From the NCBI GenBank assembly GCA_947302205.1, contig CAMYVD010000004.1, forward strand, positions 4,218 through 68,217: a stretch of 64,000 nucleotides of DNA. Direction: 5' to 3'. Source of the stretch: an uncultured Bacteroidales bacterium (GTDB taxonomy: Bacteria; Bacteroidota; Bacteroidia; Bacteroidales; F082). How positions within the stretch are numbered: position 1 is the first letter of the stretch; every line of letters begins with the position of its first letter. The notes beneath the pieces were generated by a model. That model was not told the DNA's origin. It saw only the letters and a program-made list of their open reading frames with translations, and searched no databases. This document shows positions 7,449 through 19,768 of this stretch, one piece after another. The position numbers and the translations under genes are program-made.

Positions 7449-8816
7449 TTATTCCCCTTTTGCGAAGTGTTGGTAAAAAGCGATAATCGTCTCGATGCCC
7501 TTGTAGAAGTGGTCGAGGCGATAGTTTTCGTTAGGTGAGTGGATGGCGTCCTCGCCGAGTCCGAAGCCCATCAAGATCGACTTGATACCCAACACTCTTT
7601 CAAACTCAGAGATGATCGGGATGGAACCACCTGAACGCATCGGGATAGGCTGTTTGCCGTAGGTTTCCATGTAGGCGGCTTCAGCAGCTTTGTATGCCGG
7701 CAGGTCGATGGGGCAGCCGTAGGCTTGTCCACCGTGCAAAGGAGTGACCTTCACGGTGACGTACTTCGGAGCGTTCTTCTCGAAATAGTTCTTCACTAAC
7801 TTGGCAATCTTTTCGTGGTCTTGGTTCGGTACCAGACGGCAGGAGAGCTTAGCGTATGCCTTTGATGGCAACACGGTCTTGCTGCCCTCGCCAGTATAAC
7901 CACCCCACATGCCACAGAGGTCGAAGGTAGGACGGATGCCTACACGCTCGATCTTGGTGTAGCCCTTTTCGCCACGCAGCGCCTTCACGTTCAGGCTTTC
8001 CTTGTAGGCTTTCTCGTCGTAAGGTGCCATGTTCAACAGCTGGCGTTCCTTACGTGAGCAGTTGATAACGTCGTCGTAGAAATGAGGAATGGTGATATGG
8101 TTGTTCTCATCCATGCACTTGGCGATCATCTCGCAGAGCGTGTTCAATGGGTTGGCTACGCTACCGCCGAAGATGCCGGAGTGGAGGTCTGCGTTAGGAC
8201 CGGTGACTTCGATCTCCCAGTAGGCAAGACCTCTCAGACCAGTGGTGATGGAAGGAACGTCTGAAGCGATCATCGAGGTGTCGGATACTAAGATGACATC
8301 GGCCTTCACTAAGTTCTTGTATTTCACGATCCATTTGGCGAGACTGCCAGAACCGATTTCCTCTTCGCCTTCAAGCATGAACTTCACGTTGCAGGGGAGG
8401 GTGTTGGTCTTTACCATGGTCTCGAAAGCCTTGGCGTGCATAAACGACTGACCTTTATCGTCGTCGGCACCACGAGCCCAAATCTTGCCGTCTTTCACCA
8501 CGGGTTCAAAGGGCTTGGTGTTCCACAACTCGATGGGATCCACAGGCATCACGTCGTAGTGGCCATACACCAGCACAGTGGGTTTCTTCGGGTTGATGAT
8601 CTTTTCGCCATAGACGATAGGATTGCCATCGGTAGGCATAACCTCGGCTTTGTCGGCACCGGCCTTCAGCAGGTGCTTGCGCCAGCACTCGGCGCAACGG
8701 ATCATATCAGGTTTATGAGCTGCTTCCGAGCTGATGGACGGAATACGAATGAGTTCAAATAATTCTTCAAGGAAGCGATCCTTGTTTTCCTTGATGTACT
8801 TGTCAGTGGTTTTCAT
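7449..8816 (-). CDS. M20-family dipeptidase
   Basis: Motifs HYDVMPVD, ARGADDDKG and EGEEEIGS; 455 aa. Confidence 0.8.
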   Translation of the reverse strand: MKTTDKYIKENKDRFLEELFELIRIPSISSEAAHKPDMIRCAECWRKHLLKAGADKAEVMPTDGNPIVYGEKIINPKKPTVLVYGHYDVMPVDPIELWNTKPFEPVVKDGKIWARGADDDKGQSFMHAKAFETMVKTNTLPCNVKFMLEGEEEIGSGSLAKWIVKYKNLVKADVILVSDTSMIASDVPSITTGLRGLAYWEIEVTGPNADLHSGIFGGSVANPLNTLCEMIAKCMDENNHITIPHFYDDVINCSRKERQLLNMAPYDEKAYKESLNVKALRGEKGYTKIERVGIRPTFDLCGMWGGYTGEGSKTVLPSKAYAKLSCRLVPNQDHEKIAKLVKNYFEKNAPKYVTVKVTPLHGGQAYGCPIDLPAYKAAEAAYMETYGKQPIPMRSGGSIPIISEFERVLGIKSILMGFGLGEDAIHSPNENYRLDHFYKGIETIIAFYQHFAKGE

Positions 8817-8827
8817 GTTATAAAGTA

Positions 8828-9586
8828 TTAAGATTTAGATTCATAATATTTCAACTCCACCGTCTCCCCGTCGAACACCGCATAGGTGAAATCGTAAATC
8901 CAGTTGCCCACTACGGTGGTCATGGCATGATCACCTGATTGGTATTGCATGGGTTTGTGCTGATGGCCGAAGACGAAGAAGTCGATGGAAGGATCTAAAG
9001 CAGCTTGCTCAGCGGCATATCGGTAAAGCCGAGTGTTGGGAATGTCGTCGTAATAGCCTCGTTCTACCTCGTTCTTGAGCTTCTTCAAGCGGTGGTTATG
9101 CGACCATCGAAGGGCCAATCGGATGCCGATATCGGGATGGATCCAACGGAAAAGCCATTGGTTCACCCGGCATTCAAACGCTTTTTTAAGGAATTTGTAG
9201 CCTTTGTCGCCAGGGCCTCTGCCGTCACCGTGGACCAAAAAGAACTTTTTGCCTTTCAACATCAAGATCTCGGGCTCGCGATGCAGCTGAATACCCAACT
9301 CGTCATGCAGATAGCCAAAGCACCACAAATCGTGGTTGCCGATGAAGAGATGTACTGGGATGCCGGCGTCAGTAAATTCGGCCAGTTTGCCTTGGATCCT
9401 TACAAAGCCTCTTGGTACCACCGACTTGTATTCAAACCAGAAGTCGAACAGATCGCCCATCAGGAACAACTCCTCGCAATCAGCCTTGATGGAGTCCAGG
9501 AACTTCAAGAGTTTCAGTTCGCGCTCATGGCTGTCCTCAAGCGAAGGAATGCCCAGATGGAAGTCGGTGACGAAGTAAACGGCCAT
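8828..9586 (-). CDS. lpxH: UDP-2,3-diacylglucosamine diphosphatase
   Basis: Calcineurin-like metallophosphoesterase motifs TDFHLG, MGDLFDFW and GNHD; 252 aa. Confidence 0.8.
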   Translation of the reverse strand: MAVYFVTDFHLGIPSLEDSHERELKLLKFLDSIKADCEELFLMGDLFDFWFEYKSVVPRGFVRIQGKLAEFTDAGIPVHLFIGNHDLWCFGYLHDELGIQLHREPEILMLKGKKFFLVHGDGRGPGDKGYKFLKKAFECRVNQWLFRWIHPDIGIRLALRWSHNHRLKKLKNEVERGYYDDIPNTRLYRYAAEQAALDPSIDFFVFGHQHKPMQYQSGDHAMTTVVGNWIYDFTYAVFDGETVELKYYESKS

Positions 9587-10422
9587 CAGAACTTGATTTG
9601 GGAACTGCGGCGGATAAGCTCGGTGATGAGGGTAATGAGCTTGGGTTCAACGGCGTTCACGGCACGGATGACCTCTTCGTGGGTGATGGTGATCGGGTGA
9701 TCGACACCGAAGATGTTACCCATGTCGGAGACGATAGAAAGACCGAATACCGGCAATTTGCCTTGGCGGGCCACGATAACCTCAGGGGTGGTCGACATGC
9801 CGATGGTGTCGGCACCGATAATACGGAAATAACGGCACTCGGCAGGAGTTTCGTAGGTCGGTCCCGTAGTGGAGCAGTATACGCCGTGCTGCACCCAGAT
9901 GCCTTTTTCCATAGCGATTTCGTCAGCCAACTTGATGAGTCGTTTGTCGTAAGGTTCGCTCATGTCGGGGAAACGCTCGCCGAAACGATCGTCATGAGGC
10001 CCAATCAGAGGATTCGGCATGGCGTGGATGTGGTCGTTGATGATCATGATGTCGCCCACGCGGAAGTTCGGGTTGAGTCCACCGGCAGCATTGCTGAGGA
10101 TAAGGAACTTGATGCCAAGTTGCATCATCAAGCGGATGGGGAAGACAACGGTTTCCATGGGATAGCCTTCGTAGTAATGGAAGCGGCCTTGCATGGCGAT
10201 GACTTTACGCCCCGCGATGGTGCCGAAAAGCAATTGTCCCTGATGGCCTTTGACGGTGGAAACGGGGAAGTTGGGAACCTCTGAATAGGGGAGGGCGTAT
10301 TCTACGGCAATACCGTTGGCCAAGCCGCCTAAACCGGAGCCTAACACGACGCCGACTTCAGGCTTGAACCCTTTGGTCTTCATGTTGATGTAATCAACCG
10401 TGGTGAGCATTTTTTCGTACAT
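9586..10422 (-). CDS. Purine nucleoside phosphorylase (trimeric PNP-I/PunA type)
   Basis: ..VVLGSGLGG.., GRFHYYEGY and MSTTPEV. I chose the start at MYEKM (10422) rather than the ORF-track start at 10503. The stop overlaps the lpxH ATG (TGATG). Confidence 0.8.
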   Translation of the reverse strand: MYEKMLTTVDYINMKTKGFKPEVGVVLGSGLGGLANGIAVEYALPYSEVPNFPVSTVKGHQGQLLFGTIAGRKVIAMQGRFHYYEGYPMETVVFPIRLMMQLGIKFLILSNAAGGLNPNFRVGDIMIINDHIHAMPNPLIGPHDDRFGERFPDMSEPYDKRLIKLADEIAMEKGIWVQHGVYCSTTGPTYETPAECRYFRIIGADTIGMSTTPEVIVARQGKLPVFGLSIVSDMGNIFGVDHPITITHEEVIRAVNAVEPKLITLITELIRRSSQIKF

Positions 10423-11443
10423 AGTCCAATATGATTTTGTTGAATTTTTCTTGTTGATGAATATGGATGCTGATCGGCGCCACAAAGAGCGGAACCGATT
10501 CAAACTTACAAAGGTAAGGAGAATTTATCAAACGCGCAAAATCTTTTTCGGTGGTGACCATGATTTTCTGGTCACTCGGGATTTGCTCGAATCGCTTGAG
10601 TATCGTGTTGATCTCTTTCTCGGTGTAAGCGTGATGATCGCTGAACGTGACGGTTTCTACTTGCTGATAATGGCTTGAAAGTTCTTCAATTAACGGCGTA
10701 GGATTAGCGATGCCGCAGAACAGCATGGCGGCCTGGGCCTGACCCAAATCGAATTCGTCGGCTTTGGCATTGATGGCTCTCAAAGGCTCATATTCCAAGG
10801 ATGAGAAGAATACTTCCTGATGAGGTAAGGGCTTCAATTGATTGATTATCTCAGCCTTTTGATTGTTATCCAAATCGGCGGGTGCTTTGCTTACCACGAT
10901 GATATCAGCTCGTTTGGAGGCTCCTCTCACATCACGCAAAGTGCCGACAGGAACTAAAAAATCGTTGGAATACAGCTTGTTATAGGATGTGAGCAAAATG
11001 TTAAGCCCGGCTTGGGTGCTTCGGTGTTGATAGGCGTCATCCAGCAGATAAAGCTCAGGAGGTCGGTCGATGGTTCCCATCAGTTCAATGGCTTCATTGC
11101 GGTTCTCGTCCACCGCCACCATGATATTGCTGAACTTGTTGACATACTGCAAGGGCTCGTCGCCAACGGTTTCCGATGCGCAGCCGTTATTGGCCAACTG
11201 AAAGCCTTTGGTCTTGCGACCGTAACCGCGACTGACAACGCAAACCCTGTATTGCTCCGAGAGCAGCTCAATCAAGTACGCTATGTGGGGGGTCTTGCCA
11301 GTGCCGCCTAATGCCAGATTACCCACGCAGATCACCGGTGTATCGAATCTTTTCGATTTCAAAATACGCCAATCGTACAGCTTATGCCTGATACTCAGGA
11401 TAATATGGTACAAAAACGCTATGGGTGACAGCAAAATCTTCAT
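10394..11443 (-). CDS. lpxK: Tetraacyldisaccharide 4'-kinase
   Basis: P-loop GNLALGGTGKTP; 349 aa. Confidence 0.85.
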   Translation of the reverse strand: MKILLSPIAFLYHIILSIRHKLYDWRILKSKRFDTPVICVGNLALGGTGKTPHIAYLIELLSEQYRVCVVSRGYGRKTKGFQLANNGCASETVGDEPLQYVNKFSNIMVAVDENRNEAIELMGTIDRPPELYLLDDAYQHRSTQAGLNILLTSYNKLYSNDFLVPVGTLRDVRGASKRADIIVVSKAPADLDNNQKAEIINQLKPLPHQEVFFSSLEYEPLRAINAKADEFDLGQAQAAMLFCGIANPTPLIEELSSHYQQVETVTFSDHHAYTEKEINTILKRFEQIPSDQKIMVTTEKDFARLINSPYLCKFESVPLFVAPISIHIHQQEKFNKIILDYVRKNAHHG

Positions 11444-11499: not shown

Positions 11500-12294
11500 A
11501 TGACCGTTAAGGAGATTATGAACTGCATTACGGAGATTGCGCCGTTGCAGTGGCAAGAAGATTACGACAATGCAGGGCTTCAGGTGGGCGACGTGAACGC
11601 CGAGGTCCATAAGGCGTTGATTGCCTTGGATGTGACAGAGGAATTGGTTGATGAGGCCATTGCCAAGCAGTGTGACCTGATTGTTAGCCATCATCCGCTG
11701 ATTTTCAGAGGGTTGAAGCATCTGACGCCGCAGACCTACATCGAGCGTGTAGTGATGAAAGCCATCAAGCACGACATTGCGATCGTTTCCATGCATACCA
11801 ATCTGGATAATAGTTATCTGGGCGTTAGCCGAGTGTTGGCCGACCAATTGGGCTTGACGAATCTGCACCTCCTTCAGCCTTCAGTGGATGAGCCTGAATT
11901 ATGCGGCGCTGGCATGATCGGAGAGTTTGGCCAGCCGATGAAAGAGGTTGATTTTCTGAATCTTGTCGCTGAAACGATTGGTTCACCATGTCTGAAACAT
12001 TCTGCTTTGACAGGTAGGATGATTCATAAAGTGGCTTTATGTGGCGGTTCTGGCACGCCTTTCATGCCCGATGCCCTTCGCCAAAAAGCCGACGCTTACC
12101 TTACTGCCGACATCAAATACCACGACTATTTTGTGCCTGAAGGCAATATTCTGTTGGTGGATGGCGGACATTTTGAGACCGAGCAGTTTACAAAAGAATT
12201 AATTAAGGTCTTGATAAAGAAAAAAATTCCTACCTTTGCAGCCGAAATCGCCGAGACCAATACCAACGCGGTTCACTATTTTTGTAAAAAATAA
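11500..12294 (+). CDS. Nif3-like dinuclear metal centre protein
   Basis: ..WQEDYDNAGLQVG.. and ..SHHPLIF..; 264 aa. Confidence 0.8.
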   Translation: MTVKEIMNCITEIAPLQWQEDYDNAGLQVGDVNAEVHKALIALDVTEELVDEAIAKQCDLIVSHHPLIFRGLKHLTPQTYIERVVMKAIKHDIAIVSMHTNLDNSYLGVSRVLADQLGLTNLHLLQPSVDEPELCGAGMIGEFGQPMKEVDFLNLVAETIGSPCLKHSALTGRMIHKVALCGGSGTPFMPDALRQKADAYLTADIKYHDYFVPEGNILLVDGGHFETEQFTKELIKVLIKKKIPTFAAEIAETNTNAVHYFCKK

Positions 12295-12308
12295 ATCTAA
12301 TCATAGCT

Positions 12309-13094
12309 ATGGCAGAGAAAAAAGAAGTCAAGAACATGCTCAACGAAGAACAAGTTGAGATCAGCATCGAACAGAAGTTAGAGGCGCTGTATACCTTGCA
12401 ACAGGTGGACTCGAAGATTGACAAGATCCGTGCTTATCGTGGCGAGTTGCCTCTGGAGGTCCAGGATTTGGAAGACGAGGTTGCCGGTCTGGAAACCCGT
12501 ATCAACAACTTCCAGGAGGACACCAAAAAGTTCAATACCGAGATAGCCAACTACAAGATCAAGATCAAGGAAGCTGAGGCGCTGATCAAGAAATATGAGG
12601 ACCAGCAGAACAATGTTCGCAACAACCGCGAGTACGATTCCATCAGCAAAGAGATCGAGTACCAGCAGCTTGACATTCAGCTTAGCGAGAAGAGAATCAG
12701 AGAGGCTACTGCCAAATCAGAAGACATCGCCGCTAAGATCGGGGCTGCCCAACAGCGCCTTGAGGAACGCAAGAACGACTTGACTGCCAAGAAGGATGAG
12801 CTCAATTCCATCGTTGAGGAGACTCAGAAAGAAGAAGAAACCCTGCTGAAACGCTCTGCCGAGTGCGAAGGTTTGATTGAGGAACGTCTGTTGGTGGCTT
12901 ACAAGCGCATTCGCAAGAACGCCCGCAACGGTTTGGCTGTGGTTGGTATCAACCGTGACGCTTGCGGCGGCTGCTTCAACAAGATTCCTCCGCAACACCA
13001 ACTCGATATCTGCACGCACAAGAAGATCATCGTTTGCGAGTACTGCGGACGTATCCTTGTCGATAAGGAAATCATTGAGAAATACCACGAATAA
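12309..13094 (+). CDS. Coiled-coil protein with a C-terminal C4 zinc ribbon (DUF164-like Nif3 partner)
   Basis: Long heptad-like region followed by CGGCFNKIPP..CEYCGRIL. This is the conserved neighbour of Nif3. Confidence 0.7.
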   Translation: MAEKKEVKNMLNEEQVEISIEQKLEALYTLQQVDSKIDKIRAYRGELPLEVQDLEDEVAGLETRINNFQEDTKKFNTEIANYKIKIKEAEALIKKYEDQQNNVRNNREYDSISKEIEYQQLDIQLSEKRIREATAKSEDIAAKIGAAQQRLEERKNDLTAKKDELNSIVEETQKEEETLLKRSAECEGLIEERLLVAYKRIRKNARNGLAVVGINRDACGGCFNKIPPQHQLDICTHKKIIVCEYCGRILVDKEIIEKYHE

Positions 13095-13097
13095 AAC

Positions 13098-13128
13098 AAA
13101 AAGCCGCTCAACCGAGCGGCTTTTTTTA
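13098..13128. terminator. Bidirectional hairpin terminator
   Basis: Stem aagccgctc/gagcggctt, flanked by an A-run and a T7 run. It sits between convergent genes. Confidence 0.7.
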
Positions 13129-14646
13129 TTCAATCCTGAATTTCAACGTGACCATCAGTTTGTTGCGCCAAAGGTGCTGAACCACCTCTCCAGCCACATT
13201 CTGATCCTCCTCGAAATAGCTGTAGGGAGTGTATCCCGTCGTACATTCAGTGAGCTCATAGGCGAAATCCCAAGAGACACTTGGACTGGTGGCATAGCCC
13301 AAGCCCAATGCGAATTTCTTTACACTGCCGTAATCCTCGCCGAAGCCGTATGGGCTGCCGTAATAGGCTGCGCCGCAGCGTAGGAAGAACTGCCGCACTC
13401 GCCATTCCGTGCCAATCCTGATGTTGCAAGTGGGCTTCAGGATGTTCTTGATGCCGTTGTTGACGTCGTCGAAAGAATATTCGTAACTTGTGAATCTGGA
13501 GGTGCCGTAATCCATGTATTCCACGTCGGTAGTGATCACTCCTCTTTGTCCGATGATGAATGCGACGCTACCGATAAACGTGTGTGGCGTGCGGAAGTCA
13601 TAAGTCTGATAGAACAATGGTGAGAGACGGCGGTGATAGGGCGTTCCGTCAGGGCTGTCTTTCAATGCGGTGCTGATTTCGGTGGACCAGGTCTCACCGA
13701 AGGTGTAAAGCGTTCTTGAGTGCCATGCTACTCCAATTCTCAGCCAACTGGTAGGGTAATAAATCACACCCAATTTACCATTTACACCCCAAGCAGTGTC
13801 ACCCAATACTTCGGTATAGTCCCATGTTTCAAAAAGGGTGCTGGGATCCTTGTCGTCGCCAGGCGTTTCGGTGTATTTTCGAGCGCTGGAGCGCTTGAGG
13901 TGCGATAGCCCGAAGCTGGCACCTATGAACAGCTTGTCGTACATATTGGTGCTTAAGGCAAAGGTCCACTCGTCGGCACGCCCTTTTGAACTGATGCTGT
14001 TTTGCTGATTGACATTGCCTGGAGGAACGGGACTGTCATAATAAATATTTCCCAATGAGTCGGTATATTGGTCAAATAGGTAGGTCTCCCAGGCAGGGCT
14101 GAGGTCGTATGGATAGTTGTCGCTCAGATAGTCGCTGACATTCGTGCTGGGATCAAAGAGCTGGCCGATGCCGTTGACGGTTTGCAGGAAAGCGTCTACC
14201 ATCGAGTTGTTTGGGTTGAGACCCCGGGCGATGCTGTTGAAGTTGAAGTCGTTGATGCGGGTGAGCCCGATGCCGAACTGAATGTAACGCACGGCCTCGT
14301 AATTGCTGAACCGAGGAGCGAACACCACACCCAAACTAGGGATGGTCATCCTCATTCTACTGTCGCTTTGGCTGCTGCCGTAATAGCTTGATTGCACCAA
14401 GGCGTGTTGCAATCCTGTGGTGAAAGTGAATTCCTGTGCCCGATACAGGCCCATGCCCGCAGGGTTGATACAGGTGGCCGTAGCATCGCCTCCCAAGGCT
14501 CCCGTGGCATTGCCCATGGCCATGCTGCGCGAGGTGCCTTCGTATAAAGCTTGGGAGTTGAGGATGGCATCATTCACACCCTGGGCGAAAAGCCCAAGAG
14601 GAAGAAGGAGTAAGGCGTATAATAGGGTTCTCAAAGTTCGTGTCAT
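13126..14646 (-). CDS. FadL/TodX/PorV-family outer-membrane beta-barrel protein
   Basis: I chose the start at MTRTLRTLLYALLLLPLGLFAQ (signal peptide). N-terminal hatch-like motif GTSRSMAMGNATGALGGDATATCINPAGMG. The rest is rich in aromatic and Gly residues in a beta-strand pattern. Confidence 0.55.
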   Translation of the reverse strand: MTRTLRTLLYALLLLPLGLFAQGVNDAILNSQALYEGTSRSMAMGNATGALGGDATATCINPAGMGLYRAQEFTFTTGLQHALVQSSYYGSSQSDSRMRMTIPSLGVVFAPRFSNYEAVRYIQFGIGLTRINDFNFNSIARGLNPNNSMVDAFLQTVNGIGQLFDPSTNVSDYLSDNYPYDLSPAWETYLFDQYTDSLGNIYYDSPVPPGNVNQQNSISSKGRADEWTFALSTNMYDKLFIGASFGLSHLKRSSARKYTETPGDDKDPSTLFETWDYTEVLGDTAWGVNGKLGVIYYPTSWLRIGVAWHSRTLYTFGETWSTEISTALKDSPDGTPYHRRLSPLFYQTYDFRTPHTFIGSVAFIIGQRGVITTDVEYMDYGTSRFTSYEYSFDDVNNGIKNILKPTCNIRIGTEWRVRQFFLRCGAAYYGSPYGFGEDYGSVKKFALGLGYATSPSVSWDFAYELTECTTGYTPYSYFEEDQNVAGEVVQHLWRNKLMVTLKFRIE

Positions 14647-14704
14647 AAAAAAAGGACTATCTTTAGTCTGCAAAGATAGTCCTTTTTGGTTTATGTCGGT
14701 TTTT

Positions 14705-16018
14705 TTAACGTCTTCCGCCGCCGCTGCGACCACCGCCGCCACCGCTGCTGCGACCTCCACCGCTGCTGTGGCTTCCGCCGCCACCGCCTCCACGGCTGCC
14801 GCTGCTATGGCTGCTGGAGCTGCTGCTACGGCTGCTGCCGCTGTTATAGCTTGGACTGCTGCTTCTCGAGGATGAGCTGCTGTGGTTGTAGCTTCCGCTG
14901 TTGCGACTGCTGGAGCTGCTTGAGGATGGTCTGCTCATGCTGCCGTTTGAGGATGGTCTGCTCGTTGAGGAGTTCGGGCGCACGTATTCGGAGCTTGAGC
15001 GTGACTGACGGTTGTCGCTGGGTGAGGTGTAGCTCTTGCGACCTGTTGAGGAGCTCGAGCTGCTAGGACGAGTGGTGCTGCTTGTTCCTGTGCTGGGACG
15101 TGCGGTACTTCCAGCGGTGGGGCGACTGCTTGCCGTAGGTCTGCTACCCGTTGTCGGCCTTCCACTTACCGATGGTCTTCCGCTTGTCGATGGTCTTCCG
15201 CTTGCCGATGGCCTGGTGGTTGCTGATGGCCTGGCATTGGCAGTAGGTCTGGCATTTGAAGTGGTAGGTCTTGAGACACCTGCACCGGTAGTACCACGAC
15301 CACCGTTGTTTTGAGGCGTGCGGTAACTCATGGAGCCTGGCGTGTTGTTGCGGTGGACGCTAGCCACGTAGTTGCCGAAATCGTTGTGCCCGTAACCATG
15401 TCCGTAACCTCCGTGACCATAGTAGTGATGGTGATGATGGTGGTGGTGGTGATGCGGATGATACCAATAGTGGTCATACCAAGCCCAATGAGGTCCGTAC
15501 CAATAGTAAGGGCGGTACCAGTAATAGTCGTAATACCAGGGGTTGTAATAACCGTAGTAGGGAGAATAGTAGAAGCTGAAACCGAAGGGGTAAAAGCCCC
15601 AGTTCCAGGAGTCGCCTATATAAACATAGGTGTTGCCGCCGGTGTAGTAGTCGTCATAATAATCCAGTGTGGAGCTGGCTCCGCTGCCGAAGCGCTTGAT
15701 GCGTGCCGCATAGTCGGCATCGTAGTAGGTTTCAGTGGTGGTATAGACCACGCCGTTGGTGTCGGTCACGGTTTCGGTGGTCTGGTACACTGGCTCCGTG
15801 TTGGGCACGTAGTTCTTACTGTCGGTGTAATAAGCCTGGTAGTCGTAAGTGGAAGTACCAGTGCTTGGAGTAATGGTGCCGCCGTTGCTGCGAACCTGTG
15901 AGCTATGGCTGTTGTATGGCGAGTAGTAGGTGTCGTCATAAGCCGTTCTCTTGCTTGATGAGCAGCCTGCGATCATCAGTGCTGCAAGCATCACGGGAAT
16001 TATTCTAAGCGTTTTCAT
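14705..16018 (-). CDS. Low-complexity lipoprotein (Tyr/Trp block, His10, GHGxY-like, RP(S/T)xxx repeats, Ser-rich region, RGG-like tail)
   Basis: Lipoprotein signal MKTLRIIPVMLAALMIAGC. This is the only frame with a signal peptide and a consistent start. The H10 tract is encoded at 15425-15454. Confidence 0.6.
   Translation of the reverse strand: MKTLRIIPVMLAALMIAGCSSSKRTAYDDTYYSPYNSHSSQVRSNGGTITPSTGTSTYDYQAYYTDSKNYVPNTEPVYQTTETVTDTNGVVYTTTETYYDADYAARIKRFGSGASSTLDYYDDYYTGGNTYVYIGDSWNWGFYPFGFSFYYSPYYGYYNPWYYDYYWYRPYYWYGPHWAWYDHYWYHPHHHHHHHHHHYYGHGGYGHGYGHNDFGNYVASVHRNNTPGSMSYRTPQNNGGRGTTGAGVSRPTTSNARPTANARPSATTRPSASGRPSTSGRPSVSGRPTTGSRPTASSRPTAGSTARPSTGTSSTTRPSSSSSSTGRKSYTSPSDNRQSRSSSEYVRPNSSTSRPSSNGSMSRPSSSSSSSRNSGSYNHSSSSSRSSSPSYNSGSSRSSSSSSHSSGSRGGGGGGSHSSGGGRSSGGGGGRSGGGRR
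15101..15271 (-). repeat. About 9 tandem 18-nt repeats encoding RP(S/T)xxx hexapeptides
   Basis: The + strand reads cgatggtcttccgcttgt / cgatggtcttccgcttgc / cgatggcctggtggttgc and so on. Translated, this gives RPTANA RPSATT RPSASG RPSTSG RPSVSG RPTTGS RPTASS. Confidence 0.8.
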
Positions 16019-16039
16019 CGTATTATGTATTTAATTTTC

Positions 16040-16047
16040 TATTTTTG
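16040..16047 (+). promoter_or_regulatory. -7 box TATTTTTG upstream of proS
   Basis: Matches TAnnTTTG. Confidence 0.4.
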
Positions 16048-16091
16048 CAGTCTGAAAAAACAAGTAAGAAATATACAAATATTATACCAAG

Positions 16092-17564
16092 ATGGCAAAG
16101 GAATTAACAACTCGCAAAGAAAATTATTCGCAATGGTACAACGACCTGGTAGTGAAGGCCGATTTGGCGGAGCAATCCGCGGTTAGAGGATGCATGGTGA
16201 TCAAGCCTTATGGCTATGCGATCTGGGAGTTCATGCACGACGCCTTGGACAAGATGTTCAAGGAGACCGGACACGTGAACGCCTATTTCCCGCTGTTCAT
16301 CCCCAAGAGTTTCTTCAGCCGTGAGGCCGACCATGTGGAAGGTTTTGCCAAGGAGTGCGCCGTGGTGACTCACCACCGCCTGATGAACGATCCTAACGGC
16401 AATGGCGTGGTGGTTGATCCTTCAGCCAAGCTTGAAGAAGAGCTGATTGTCCGTCCTACTTCTGAGACCATCATTTGGGACACCTACCGCAACTGGGTGA
16501 AGAGCTACCGCGACCTCCCGATCCTCTGCAACCAATGGGCCAACGTGGTTCGCTGGGAGATGCGTACCCGTTTGTTCCTCCGCACGGCCGAGTTCCTGTG
16601 GCAGGAAGGTCACACGGCTCACGCCACCATGGAAGAGGCTGAAGCCGAGGCTAAGAAGATGCTGGGTGTCTACACTGACTTTGCTGAAAAGTGGTTGGCA
16701 ATTCCTGTGTATCAAGGTGTTAAGTCGGCTAACGAACGTTTTGCCGGTGCTTTGAATACCTATTGCATCGAAGCCATGATGCAGGACGGCAAGGCCTTGC
16801 AGGCTGGTACTTCGCACTTCTTGGGCCAGAACTTTGCCAAGGCTTTCGACGTGAAGTTCCTCAACAAGGAGAACAAACTCGAGTATGTGTGGGCTACCTC
16901 ATGGGGTGTTTCCACCCGCTTGATGGGCGCTTTGATCATGTCGCACTCCGACGACGACGGTTTGGTGCTGCCTCCAAAGATCGCCCCGATCCAAGTGGTT
17001 ATCGTGCCCATTTACAAGAACGACGAGGAGAAGGCTTTGACCTTTGGCCGTTGCGAAGAGATGAGGCAACAACTTGTGAACGCCGGTCTGCGTGTGAAGT
17101 TCGATGACCGCGATACCCAAAAGCCTGGCTTCAAGTTCCACGAGTGGGAGCTCAAGGGCGTTCCAGTACGTTTGGTGGTTGGTCCTCGCGATGTCAACGA
17201 AGGCACGGTGGAACTGGCTCGCCGCGATACCATGAGCAAGGAATCAACTTCTTACGAAGGCATCGTTGCCAAGGTCCTTGGCTTGATGGAAGAGATTCAG
17301 GCGAACCTCTATCAGAAAGCCCTGAAATACCGCAACGACAACACTTACGATGTCAACACCTGGGACGAGTTCAAGGCTCAGATTGAGAAGGGCGGCTTCG
17401 TACACGCTTTCTGGGATGGCACTACCGAGACCGAACTGAAGATCAAGGAGGAGACCAAAGCCACCTTGCGTTTCATCCCGCTTGATGTCAAGGAAGAGGA
17501 AGGCGTGGATGTCTATTCAGGCAAGCCTGCCAAGATGAGAGTGTATTTCGCTAAGGCCTACTGA
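16092..17564 (+). CDS. proS: Proline--tRNA ligase (archaeal/eukaryote-like type)
   Basis: 490 aa. Class II aaRS core with the C-terminal ..FAKAY ending typical of this ProRS type. Confidence 0.9.
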
Positions 17565-18501
17565 TAATCGTATCAAGGATATTCTCAGGCTTAAGGCCTG
17601 ATCTGATGAGGCTCAGAGGGCAATAGTAGGTGGTGTCAACCGTGTCGCTAGGTATCCATCCTTCATCGGGATCGAGATGCCCCCAATGAATCACTTTTCC
17701 GGGTTTTGTATATCGGGCGTAATACACACGCCCGATGTTGTCATTCATTGCGATGATTTGCTTGAAAGCCTTTGCATAGACGGTATTGGTGCCAAAATAG
17801 TTGATCCTATGGTATAAGCTGGACTCCATGTTGAGACAGTTGATGATCCCGTGGCACTCGTAGTTGCCGTAAGTTTCCGCACGGACACAGCTTCCTTTGA
17901 CATTGATGCTGGAAGTGCCCATCATGTATTTGGTTATCAATCGATAGCAGTTTGTCAAGACAGTGAAATCTCCCGACCCTCCGTTGATCTCAAGCATGAG
18001 ATTGGGGGTGAGCGAATAAAAGATATCACCGCTGTCAGTGGAGAAATCGGTCCAGCTGTCATAGCCTCTCAGCGTATCGGTGTTGATGATGCCGTTGGAA
18101 TTGAAGATGAGCATGAGCAAGGAGTCGTAATAAACGGTCATCTCAAGCGTATAGTCGTAGGGGCGAAGGAAATCGAGCGTGTTTTCGTTCCTGATCACGA
18201 GCTTGTTGAGCGTTAGCGTTTCGATGCCTTCGTTATTGACGGTTTCAATGCGATGTTCCTCAAATTCAGTGGTGATTTGGTCTATCAGGTTTTCGCCGGT
18301 TTTGACGATGATTTTGCCAGCGGGATTGACGGCATCAGCATGCTTCAACGTGACATTGATGTTGTCACACATCTCAATGACTTGGAACGGGGTGTCCAAT
18401 CGGTATTGCTTCTCGGTTACGTTGCCGTTGGAGAACTTCTTGCAGGAGAAGCACAATAGGCTAATGCAAGCCAGGAGCAGTATGTCGAGTCTTCTTTTCA
18501 T
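17551..18501 (-). CDS. Lipoprotein, possibly DUF2807/GIN-domain-like
   Basis: Signal plus lipobox (LLCFSC). Repetitive beta-strand-like segments. The family assignment is uncertain. Confidence 0.4.
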
Positions 18502-19726
18502 GGTTGAGATAGTATTTTTGGTTGAAGCGGTATCCCAGGCCGAAGCAGAGATAGTCGGCCCTGCCGAAATGAGTCATCAGGGCGACATGGGCGTAGATGT
18601 TGTCGTAGATCCGATAGCGTGCGGTGACTTTCTGGAAAATGTTGCCTTTGCTGAGATCGGTGAACTTGTTGTATTTCAGGTGCCAGCCGAACTCAAAGTA
18701 ATACGAGAGCCGGTTCATCGTCAAGGAATAGCATAAGCTGAGGTTGAGCTTGGCCATCTGGTAAGGCTGGATGACGTACGTCTTGGCTCCCTCTTTCTCG
18801 TAGACTGTAACCTCAATGCCTCCATCAACGAGCTTATGGCCGGGGAGTCGCTGGTCGGACATGTCGAGCACCAGCGAGAGGCCGAATCCCGCGCGGCTGT
18901 ATTGCGTGAATTGCCCAAGGAAGAAAGCGGAAAGGTCATGCACGGGGTAAAAATAAGCGGAATCGCCACCCAAGGTCTGCGACACGTTCTTGAACCCGAT
19001 GCCGTAGTCCAAATCGAGGGAGAGCCATTTTTTCTTGTCGAACTCAAAAGGGTAGTACTGTGGACGCCATCCCGGATTCTCATTGCCTCGAGGACGGGCG
19101 AGGTGGTAGGCCAGTCCCCATGCTCCGCTGATGGTGTTCAAACCGTAGTTGGGCAACTTGGTGCTTCCGTTGGAGAAATGCGTCAGGCCGATGGAGGCTA
19201 CTGACATCAACCTGTCAGTGATTCGCTGCCGGTATTCGAATGAAAGGTTTACGGCGGCGTTCAGGTGCGATCCGATGGAGAAGTTGTAGTAGTTGCTGCT
19301 TTCATAAGGCTCGAAATGGCTGGTGAGATAGCCTAAACCAATGCCGAGCTTAAAGGTTATCTGGCTGTTTTGGTTGTTGTTGAGCGGATAGCTGATGAAA
19401 GGATAGAGCGCATACGCCCGCCCTAACTCCTTAAAGCCTCCCAGGTTGGAGTGGTAGAAGGTGAGGCCGATGTAGGGATAGTTGAAGTCGGCTTCCCATG
19501 CCTTTTTGCCGAAGGTCCTTGTGTACACCGAGGCTTCGATGGCGCCGTAATGCGCGTTGAACTTTTCCATCTCGAAGTGGTGGTGGTAGAAGAATCCATA
19601 ATGCACACGGGCCTCGACCATGATGTTGTTATGCTTCGCCCACAAAAACTCTTGTCCCTTGGCTGTCGAGCCAAGAGCCATCAGGAACGCCAATATTCCG
19701 ATAACAAATGCCTTTGTGGGTTTCAT
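18461..19726 (-). CDS. Acyloxyacyl hydrolase / PagL-like lipid A deacylase family outer-membrane protein
   Basis: I chose the start at MKPTKAFVIGILAFLMALG. HFSNG motif (HxSNG) and beta-barrel-like composition. Its 3' end overlaps the next gene by 41 nt. Confidence 0.55.
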   Translation of the reverse strand: MKPTKAFVIGILAFLMALGSTAKGQEFLWAKHNNIMVEARVHYGFFYHHHFEMEKFNAHYGAIEASVYTRTFGKKAWEADFNYPYIGLTFYHSNLGGFKELGRAYALYPFISYPLNNNQNSQITFKLGIGLGYLTSHFEPYESSNYYNFSIGSHLNAAVNLSFEYRQRITDRLMSVASIGLTHFSNGSTKLPNYGLNTISGAWGLAYHLARPRGNENPGWRPQYYPFEFDKKKWLSLDLDYGIGFKNVSQTLGGDSAYFYPVHDLSAFFLGQFTQYSRAGFGLSLVLDMSDQRLPGHKLVDGGIEVTVYEKEGAKTYVIQPYQMAKLNLSLCYSLTMNRLSYYFEFGWHLKYNKFTDLSKGNIFQKVTARYRIYDNIYAHVALMTHFGRADYLCFGLGYRFNQKYYLNHEKKTRHTAPGLH

Positions 19727-19768
19727 AACAGAATAAACTGCAAAAATACTCATTTATTTTTAAATGCT

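Follow-up and report, generated by a model that had tools for sequence, protein, structure and literature searches.

The outer membrane of Bacteroidota has recently been shown to be built differently from that of Escherichia coli, with FadL-like barrels serving as structural partners of lipoproteins. One example is BamG–BamH, in which a 14-strand barrel of FadL fold is accompanied by a lipoprotein whose conserved lipidated N-terminal tail is held in a groove of the barrel (PMC12611786). BamG2 and BamH2 are encoded together (PMC12578637), the partner gene lying beside that of the barrel (Bt1785–Bt1786; PMC12611786, PMC12578637). Four FadL paralogues have been counted in Bacteroides thetaiotaomicron, and only BamG and BamG2 have been described (PMC12578637). 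PorV and PorQ, also FadL-superfamily barrels of this phylum, bind other proteins as well. Here, we describe a pair of adjacent genes of comparable layout in a stretch of 64,000 nucleotides from an uncultured Bacteroidales bacterium (GenBank assembly GCA_947302205.1, contig CAMYVD010000004.1; hereafter the window, to whose positions all coordinates refer). The first gene codes for a lipoprotein that is predicted to be largely unfolded, called here the intrinsically disordered protein (IDP), and the second for an outer-membrane barrel of the FadL family; both lie on the minus strand. The pair recurs throughout Bacteroidota and may constitute a two-gene module of the cell envelope.

A Gene Pair Conserved Across Bacteroidota

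The conservation of the pair was examined in a genome survey limited to one genome per species, in which a barrel profile detected 299 relatives. The best 80 of these 299 were kept, and 75 had enough upstream DNA to be informative. In about 73 of the 75 loci, the adjacent upstream open reading frame (ORF) on the same strand codes for an IDP-type protein, which bears out the syntenic partnership proposed in an earlier reading of the window made from its letters alone (the sequence-only reading). These upstream ORFs stop 11–260 nt before the barrel gene and code for 340–610 amino acids, with a signal peptide or lipobox and mostly an RR end; Ser, Arg, Gly, and Thr together make up 31–54% of their residues and aromatic amino acids 12–18%. 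The pair is found in rumen and gut Bacteroidales, Prolixibacteraceae, Marinilabiliaceae, Flavobacterium, Chitinophagales, Sphingobacteriia, and one metagenome-assembled genome (MAG) labelled Chryseobacterium. Even where barrel identity has fallen to about 30%, in different classes of the phylum, the two genes are adjacent, and three IDP subfamilies with different heads and neighbourhoods have a barrel homologue directly downstream (phmmer E 1e-100, 3e-32, and 8e-28). Neighbours were counted over 82 loci. The prolyl-tRNA synthetase gene proS is the divergent neighbour of the pair in 54 of them (73 nt separate the proS and IDP start codons in the window, 16019–16091), for which reason the module is considered old and vertically inherited. 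In two loci (L003 and L004), proS and all other neighbours differ and the pair is still intact.

The same aromatic block, Ser/Arg-rich tail, and GRR end are also found in other classes of proteins (P0084, P0045, P0088, and P0087), which carry other heads and have no adjoining barrel gene. For example, the P0084 class, some of whose members are named 'DUF3300 domain-containing' in UniRef, comprises more than 2,863 members and stands alone without a barrel gene (L090, 5001–6428; L091, 5001–6530). The DUF3300 model itself (PF11737) matched neither P0084 nor the IDP in a Pfam scan with E up to 10. Since proteins with the same tail and other heads lack the adjoining barrel, the link to the barrel lies in the head of the IDP, which bears a DDxYY motif. 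The common tail looks like a portable module.

The gene of the IDP is real, expressed, and under purifying selection. The ratio of nonsynonymous to synonymous substitution rates (dN/dS), calculated against L009 and L010, the nearest relatives among the genomes (yak and sheep reticulum MAGs), is about 0.10 overall, 0.06–0.07 in the N-terminal region, and 0.13–0.26 in the Ser/Arg tail, and that of the barrel gene is similar (0.09–0.12); all these figures are rough, as dS is close to saturation. Relative to the window, contigs of four independent metagenome runs carry only in-frame changes in this ORF, namely insertions of 3 nt at 14905/6 and of 12 nt at 15389 (one additional GHGY-type unit) and a deletion of 36 nt at 15194–15231 (two RPxxxx units). 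The ORF is likewise covered by rumen metatranscriptome contigs with only in-frame differences (+12 and -3 nt; -18 nt in another run), including a cDNA contig of depth 54 over 15337–15776, contig depth being a poor gauge of expression. Another reading frame or a non-coding region is ruled out by the dN/dS values, the in-frame indels, and the homologues. Purifying selection on the frame and a block order common to the homologues together place the ORF beyond chance. The sequence-only reading had described the lipoprotein ORF and its blocks with coordinates; these were confirmed in the sequence, and so was the ORF as a real lipoprotein gene. Independent assemblies are also in frame, apart from a 17-nt gap in one of them (P0001, locus L089). 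This gap was rejected as evidence of a pseudogene because its position coincides exactly with the 18-nt repeats and the copy is otherwise 98% identical; the original frame is still open downstream, and assembly collapse is the likeliest explanation. Between strains, positions 15050–15460 of the window are polymorphic, with in-frame gain or loss of units in the RPxxxx (-18, -36), GHGY (+12), and His (-3) tracts.

The two genes had been regarded as probably one operon. Their common strand and the 58 nt between them speak for this; a conserved terminator-like hairpin in the spacer qualifies it. This hairpin is a 16-bp palindromic element in which two compensatory base-pair changes are seen among seven related loci, and the length of its T-run varies among assemblies. 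Terminator-like hairpins occupy the spacer in several distant lineages, and other lineages have short, plain spacers. One contig (14396–14936) runs from the IDP gene across the hairpin into the barrel gene, the RNA status of that run being uncertain. The conserved hairpin and this junction-spanning contig suggest co-transcription with partial termination, by which more partner than barrel would be made; a separate promoter for the barrel is a possible alternative. Within its 5' arm, the hairpin carries TATCTTTG (replaced by TACCTTTG in relatives), which fits the Bacteroidetes -7 promoter consensus TAnnTTTG, and the element might be both a terminator for the IDP gene and a promoter for the barrel gene.

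The Disordered Partner

A homology search with the 437-residue protein (E <=1e-3) returned 162 homologues, all of them annotated as 'hypothetical', and every organism named in the source is a member of Bacteroidota. No Pfam or NCBIfam model matched the IDP or 15 diverse relatives (n = 16) at E up to 10, in agreement with the earlier statement that no described family accounts for it, and no paper on the pair was found in the literature on FadL barrels, disordered lipoproteins, outer membrane–peptidoglycan tethers, and PorV/PorQ paralogues. Judged from these searches, the IDP belongs to an undescribed protein family that extends across Bacteroidota.

The members of this family have a common plan, and the block order, not only the composition, is kept in 60 barrel-linked orthologues, as the sequence-only reading had proposed to examine by homology search. 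The proteins are Sec-exported, and the plan starts with a signal peptide, usually with a lipobox whose Cys is invariant in the family alignment (A2); a lipobox is present in 106 members, and a minority carry a signal-peptidase-I site instead. Nearly all lipidated members have a DD(I/V/L/T)Y(Y/F) motif 8–13 residues past the Cys, and in the non-lipidated ones DDxYF follows directly after signal-peptidase-I cleavage, near the mature N-terminus. Then come a variable linker and, in most members including most barrel-linked orthologues, the motif Y-x-x-R-(I/L)-x-R-F, directly followed by an aromatic block that in every orthologue contains 19–34 Tyr, Trp, or Phe in its densest 50 residues. Ser, Thr, Asn, Gly, and Arg make up the remainder, a tail of 150–400 residues in which Arg typically numbers 20–60, Lys is scarce, and acidic residues are very rare. 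The island YTSPSxRQxRSSSEYVRP is frequent in this tail, which closes with a Gly-rich end that has a terminal RR in 142 of 182 family sequences. The invariance of this RR in A2 implies that something recognises the free C-terminus. As far as composition can tell, what is conserved in the tail is the pattern of self-associating or polyanion-binding disordered proteins, that is, many Tyr and Trp followed by many Arg with Ser/Gly as spacer.

In the window protein, the lipobox reads ...LMIAGC19, and of the residues of the following motif D28 and D29 are conserved in at least 90% of A2 and Y31 is invariant. Residues 20–135 form a head rich in Tyr, Thr, and Asp with a net charge of -6. When the family alignment was used as input for AlphaFold2 (AF2), the mean predicted local distance difference test (pLDDT) score was 48, which indicates disorder except in residues 78–106, where a beta-hairpin (78–98, pLDDT 88–95) and a helix (101–106) are predicted. 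The aromatic block is followed by an unbroken tract of ten His (nt 15425–15454) and about four (3–4) GHG-type units; besides the ten of the tract, the protein has 11 more His. The RP(S/T)xxx repeats had been described as encoded by 18-nt tandem DNA repeats; about ten RPxxxx units are indeed present in the protein, but near-identical 18-nt copies are limited to about three (15159–15211, Tandem Repeats Finder), and the remaining periodicity exists at the protein level only. The same program also marks the His and Gly/Ser regions as containing short repeats. A Ser-rich tract (50 Ser in 93 residues) comes after the RPxxxx units, and the C-terminus is GSRGGGGGGSHSSGGGRSSGGGGGRSGGGRR. The mature protein has a net charge of +18 and a pI (isoelectric point) of 9.7; charge is segregated, the head being acidic and the tail carrying about +27, and Arg far exceeds Lys.

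The composition of the IDP recalls proteins from very different sources. FUS contains a Tyr-rich prion-like domain and an RGG domain, and the Tyr/Trp-rich segment of the IDP followed by one rich in Arg, Gly, and Ser is similar to FUS-type proteins in its compositional 'stickers'. There is no homology between them, the IDP is bacterial, secreted, and lipidated, and its phase separation, like the condensate- or matrix-forming behaviour put forward in the sequence-only reading, is conjecture. The likeness of the His/Gly/Tyr patch of this lineage to squid-beak and Nereis-jaw proteins is one of composition only and, unlike in those proteins, the 3–4 GHG units of the IDP are neither family-conserved nor dominant. 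The P0084 paralogues share the aromatic block, the Ser/Arg-rich tail, and the GRR end with the IDP, which differs from them in its head and in having a barrel partner.

The FadL-type Barrel

The barrel had been noticed as a gene 58 nt downstream of the IDP gene, on the same strand and with an INPAGMG-type motif. This is correct, the true start being the ATG at 14646, at the beginning of the signal peptide MTRTLRTLLYALLLLPLGLFAQ (MTRTLRTLL...), and the motif lies within CINPAGMG. An extension from a GTG at 14793 given in the ORF listing is spurious, an artefact of mechanical listing. The AF2 model (pLDDT 85.9) together with Foldseek points to a 14-strand fold with an N-terminal hatch. Among PDB structures, this predicted structure matches FadL, TodX, TbuX, and CymD as well as BamG of three solved Bacteroidota BAM (beta-barrel assembly machinery) complexes, with E from 1e-15 to 1e-11, TM (template modelling) scores of 0.5–0.66, and 11–14% identity. 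The NPA motif of the hatch is invariant in the 49-sequence barrel alignment (A1), and we take it as the counterpart of the NPA that FadL has in its hatch domain; the FadL mutant structures N33A, P34A, and delta-NPA are among the fold matches. As many as 370 homologues were found at E <=1e-5, many of them 50–90% identical and many carrying Toluene_X (PF03349), a model that on the barrel itself scores under its cut-off (E 5.6e-4, 18.9 bits against 29.7). In sequence searches of the PDB, TbuX alone was matched (E 0.0086, with the profile).

The predicted fold, the invariant NPA, and the PF03349 matches of the homologues thus relate this barrel to FadL, TodX, and TbuX, from which it differs in being only 12–14% identical and about 60 residues longer, in carrying helical extracellular insertions in the AF2 model and in having an obligate disordered partner gene, which is not known for FadL. 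Its fold resembles BamG (9hiv_F, 9n2d_B, and 9hjm_F, E 3e-15 to 7e-13) at the same level as FadL. By sequence, no similarity was detected between the barrel and the BamG chains solved for B. thetaiotaomicron, Porphyromonas gingivalis, and Flavobacterium johnsoniae, and no BamG chain in the PDB was matched by the single sequence at E <=1 or by the 49-sequence profile at E <=10. An identification of the barrel as BamG was therefore rejected, as it has no sequence match to these chains and a fold likeness no better than to FadL. The earlier assignment to a FadL/PorV family was right as regards the FadL fold and NPA; a specific relationship to PorV was not found, the scores being 31.7 bits for NCBIfam PorV_fam (NF033709, cut-off 90) and 15.6 for PorV2 (cut-off 325), and the 50 best fold matches do not include PorV. 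The barrel was rejected as a PorV/PorQ protein because these scores are under cut-off and no type IX secretion system (T9SS) genes are found among its neighbours; in addition, its partner lacks a C-terminal secretion domain. Because the BamG chains are undetected while orthologues in Flavobacterium are still found by tblastn at E of about 1e-46, the barrel is classified from sequence and model as a separate, new clade of the known FadL family.

Location and Proposed Mechanism

In Bacteroidota, the lipoprotein export signal has been defined by two acidic residues or more in the six positions past the Cys (PMC12578637). These six positions contain no acidic residue in 99 of the 106 lipidated members, the window protein included, and one in the other 7. 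Surface exposure, one of the locations proposed in the sequence-only reading, is not predicted because the signal is missing in these 99 members. Neither Pfam nor NCBIfam scans show a T9SS C-terminal domain on the IDP, whose C-terminus is the disordered Gly/Arg tail. By default, one would predict an outer-membrane anchor with the chain facing the periplasm, and a soluble periplasmic protein in the non-lipidated subfamilies. In this respect it is unlike BamH, which is folded, lies on the surface, and has an export signal.

The reading that we prefer, to which we give a little less than an even chance, is that of a two-gene envelope module in which the head of the IDP docks on the barrel and a sticky tail extends into the periplasm. 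The lipid Cys and the DDxYY motif, in this lineage also the beta-hairpin and the YxxRIxRF helix, would constitute the docking head, and both proteins would form an outer-membrane complex. Docking of the head is proposed on the analogy with BamG–BamH and on the finding that a barrel gene accompanies this head and not the tail as such; for the IDP, an N-terminal tail held as in BamH is a proposal. The aromatic block and the cationic Ser/Thr/Arg/Gly tail of 200–400 residues would hang free into the periplasm, where the Tyr/Trp and Arg 'stickers' could act as a multivalent element, either by self-association or by binding anionic envelope polymers (peptidoglycan, phospholipid, or lipopolysaccharide (LPS) head groups). 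The barrel being a channel for hydrophobic molecules in this view, the sticky tail may in this way organise the envelope around it or serve as a tether there. In the rumen lineage, the His10/GHG patch would be an add-on that makes the stickiness sensitive to pH or to Zn/Ni.

Several points weigh against this reading. From the docking step onward, physical contact between barrel and IDP is something that we infer by analogy. The head diverges fast, so that a single-sequence search with residues 20–135 recovered 20 clusters among 1.84 billion representatives; by this measure it evolves too fast for detection by phmmer. Its DDxYY motif is degenerate in some lineages, such as Flavobacterium (DNDGVYG) and the P0100 class (DDGQRFQDGIYG). 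The DD pair at +9 to +12 might be an atypical export signal, which would place the protein on the surface. As judged from its sequence conservation, the hairpin in the spacer means that stoichiometric co-expression is not guaranteed. The tail may have as its partner itself, peptidoglycan, lipid head groups, or hydrophobic ligands, none of which is favoured by the data. Lastly, clustering of the neighbourhoods of the 82 loci gave no functional clue.

A different role, in keeping with the sequence-only reading, has been considered in which the barrel carries the IDP to the cell surface or anchors it there, similarly to PorV with T9SS cargo or to RcsF through OmpA/C/F, and the aromatic and Arg-rich parts make an adhesive or matrix layer on anionic LPS or capsule. 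Such a role would agree with the strict synteny, with the FadL-like barrels of the phylum that do hold surface proteins (BamG–BamH, PorV–cargo), with the non-lipidated members in which the DDxYF motif opens the mature chain, and with the strongly cationic tail. It is nevertheless unlikely: nearly all lipidated members lack the export signal, no T9SS C-terminal domain or other Pfam/NCBIfam match is present, the barrel has no specific similarity to PorV, and the invariant NPA hatch plugs FadL-type lumens, so that the threading of a 400-residue chain is hard to picture. The same hatch and the FadL fold are what one would expect if the barrel imported hydrophobic or amphipathic molecules (fatty acids, bile acids, or aromatics) and relayed them to the IDP as a periplasmic acceptor, whose aromatic block would bind the hydrophobic moieties and whose Arg would bind carboxylates. 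The predicted periplasmic location of the IDP and the conservation of its aromatic block and Arg richness are consistent with a relay of this kind, which we consider improbable since no fatty-acid or aromatic catabolic genes are linked to the pair in the window and the neighbour survey, and a Ser/Arg tail of 250–400 residues is superfluous for it. To our knowledge, FadL systems in Proteobacteria also work without such a partner.

The metal and squid-beak analogy of the sequence-only reading was drawn from the His10 tract, the GHG units, and the RP(S/T) repeats. According to a metal-binding explanation, the His10/GHG patch is the functional core and serves to buffer or scavenge Ni, Zn, or Cu in the envelope, as could be expected from the His content of the window protein and from His-rich patches that recur just behind the aromatic block in several subfamilies from gut and rumen. 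Poly-His, GHG, and RP(S/T) elements always follow immediately on the aromatic block and are confined to the rumen clade and to a few subfamilies of gut or marine origin; the His-rich patches occur in the rumen clade and in part of the Bacteroidaceae and Marinilabiliaceae. The longest His run is 0 in about 60 of the 75 genome loci, among them every locus of Flavobacteriales, Chitinophagales, and Prolixibacteraceae. Because they are absent from most of the family, these features are lineage-limited embellishments that cannot be the core function. In addition, the length of the His tract differs between strains, and no metal transporter or regulator is linked in the window or in the neighbour survey, all of which makes metal binding as the core role very unlikely. 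Equally little room is left for two unrelated genes whose adjacency is merely an inherited gene order beside proS. The old neighbourhood with proS and the terminator-like hairpin between the genes fit this explanation, but the pair persists in L003 and L004 with other neighbours, its adjacency survives across the classes of the phylum despite the low barrel identity, and the paralogues with the same tail and another head are never next to a barrel. Finally, we consider it a rather distant prospect that the aromatic block, Ser/Arg tail, and GGRR end together represent a portable periplasmic condensate or gel module, carried on different heads and nucleated here by a FadL-like barrel.

Organization of the Locus and Related Loci

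The features of the pair and its immediate flanks are collected in Table 1. The neighbours of the pair are partly specific to lineages, as in the case of DUF4954, a methyltransferase, a tetratricopeptide repeat (TPR) protein, and WbqC. In the window, a Nif3-family gene and then a CdsZ-like coiled-coil/zinc-ribbon gene (11500–13094) are convergent with the barrel gene, and these two genes recur together in about 20 related loci. Also nearby (10394–11443 and 17551–19753) are lpxK, a gene for a DUF2807 lipoprotein, and a homologue of PagL-like lipid A deacylases. DUF2807, PagL-like, and MazG genes are present in L001 as well, and in L006 the pair has LpxC and LpxA-like genes in its vicinity; coincidence is possible.

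Table 1. Features of the IDP–barrel locus in window coordinates (A1, barrel alignment; A2, IDP family alignment).
Feature	Position	Strand	Evidence
Intrinsic terminator, strong, just past the barrel stop, common to the convergent Zn-ribbon gene	13098..13125	-	12-bp stem, 6 GC pairs, T-run
Coding sequence of the 506-amino-acid FadL-family outer-membrane barrel; signal peptide 14584-14646	13126..14646	-	AF2, Foldseek
NPA motif N61-P62-A63 in the N-terminal hatch	14458..14466	-	Invariant in A1 (49 sequences)
Intergenic 13-16-bp hairpin with U-run, terminator/attenuator-like, between IDP and barrel genes	14649..14687	-	Kept in 7 loci
Coding sequence of the 437-amino-acid disordered lipoprotein (IDP)	14705..16018	-	ORF, 162 homologues, dN/dS ~0.10, metatranscriptome contigs
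Gly/Arg-rich C-terminal tail ending in GGGRR	14708..14800	-	R436 and R437 invariant in A2
Tail island YTSPSxxRQxRSSSEYVRP	14966..15031	-	Kept across distant members in A2; regex scan
RPxxxx hexapeptide repeats, ~10 units, residues 249-321	15056..15274	-	Protein-level periodicity
His-rich patch, HP-His10 then YYGHGGYGHGYGH, residues 187-211	15386..15460	-	Sequence; lineage-specific
Aromatic block, residues 136-186	15461..15613	-	Composition: 30/51 Y/W/F, single aliphatic residue
Beta-hairpin (TETVTDTNGVVYTTTETYY) and short helix with YAARIKRF	15689..15787	-	AF2; sole predicted folded element
DDTYY motif, 9 residues past the lipid Cys, family-wide N-terminal signature	15923..15937	-	A2
Signal peptide and lipobox MKTLRIIPVMLAALMIAGC, putative lipidation at Cys19	15962..16018	-	Sequence reading; C19 invariant in A2
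proS (prolyl-tRNA synthetase), divergent neighbour	16092..17564	+	Neighbour in 54/82 loci

Some of the loci that carry the tail on other heads have surroundings of their own. For example, in the P0045 class (L005, 4001–5371) the mature N-terminus is DETITVTA or ETITVSAN, resembling a TonB box, followed by a NLDLNGDGQVDYLRV head, and the next gene codes for another Ser-rich lipoprotein. A P0087 paralogue (L008, 1027–5251) is immediately preceded by two genes, one porP/sprF-like and the other PorE-like (TPR, PD40, OmpA). Another observation concerns L091 (Prolixibacter sp. SD074), where seven genes for 96-amino-acid GIY-YIG domains are arranged in tandem at 8166–11025 with a spacing of about 145 nt.

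Biological Significance

That a FadL-like barrel has a lipoprotein dedicated to it is not without recent precedent; what is new here is the partner family and the barrel clade. A further FadL clade is thus defined, which is phylum-wide, vertically inherited beside proS, and paired with an unannotated disordered partner. Cultured carriers of the pair exist, namely Flavobacterium potami, Labilibaculum filiforme, Marinifilum breve, Mangrovibacterium lignilyticum, and Gaoshiqia hydrogeniformans. A portable condensate module, should the tail indeed be one, would be the equivalent in the bacterial envelope of the FUS-type proteins that phase-separate through Tyr and Arg, would organise the periplasm or tether the outer membrane in a phylum without Braun's lipoprotein, and could be tuned by pH or metal through the His tracts of gut and rumen lineages. 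As to the preferred reading of a docked head with a self-associating or polymer-binding periplasmic tail, it would, if true, represent a new principle of envelope organisation in the phylum that dominates gut and rumen communities.

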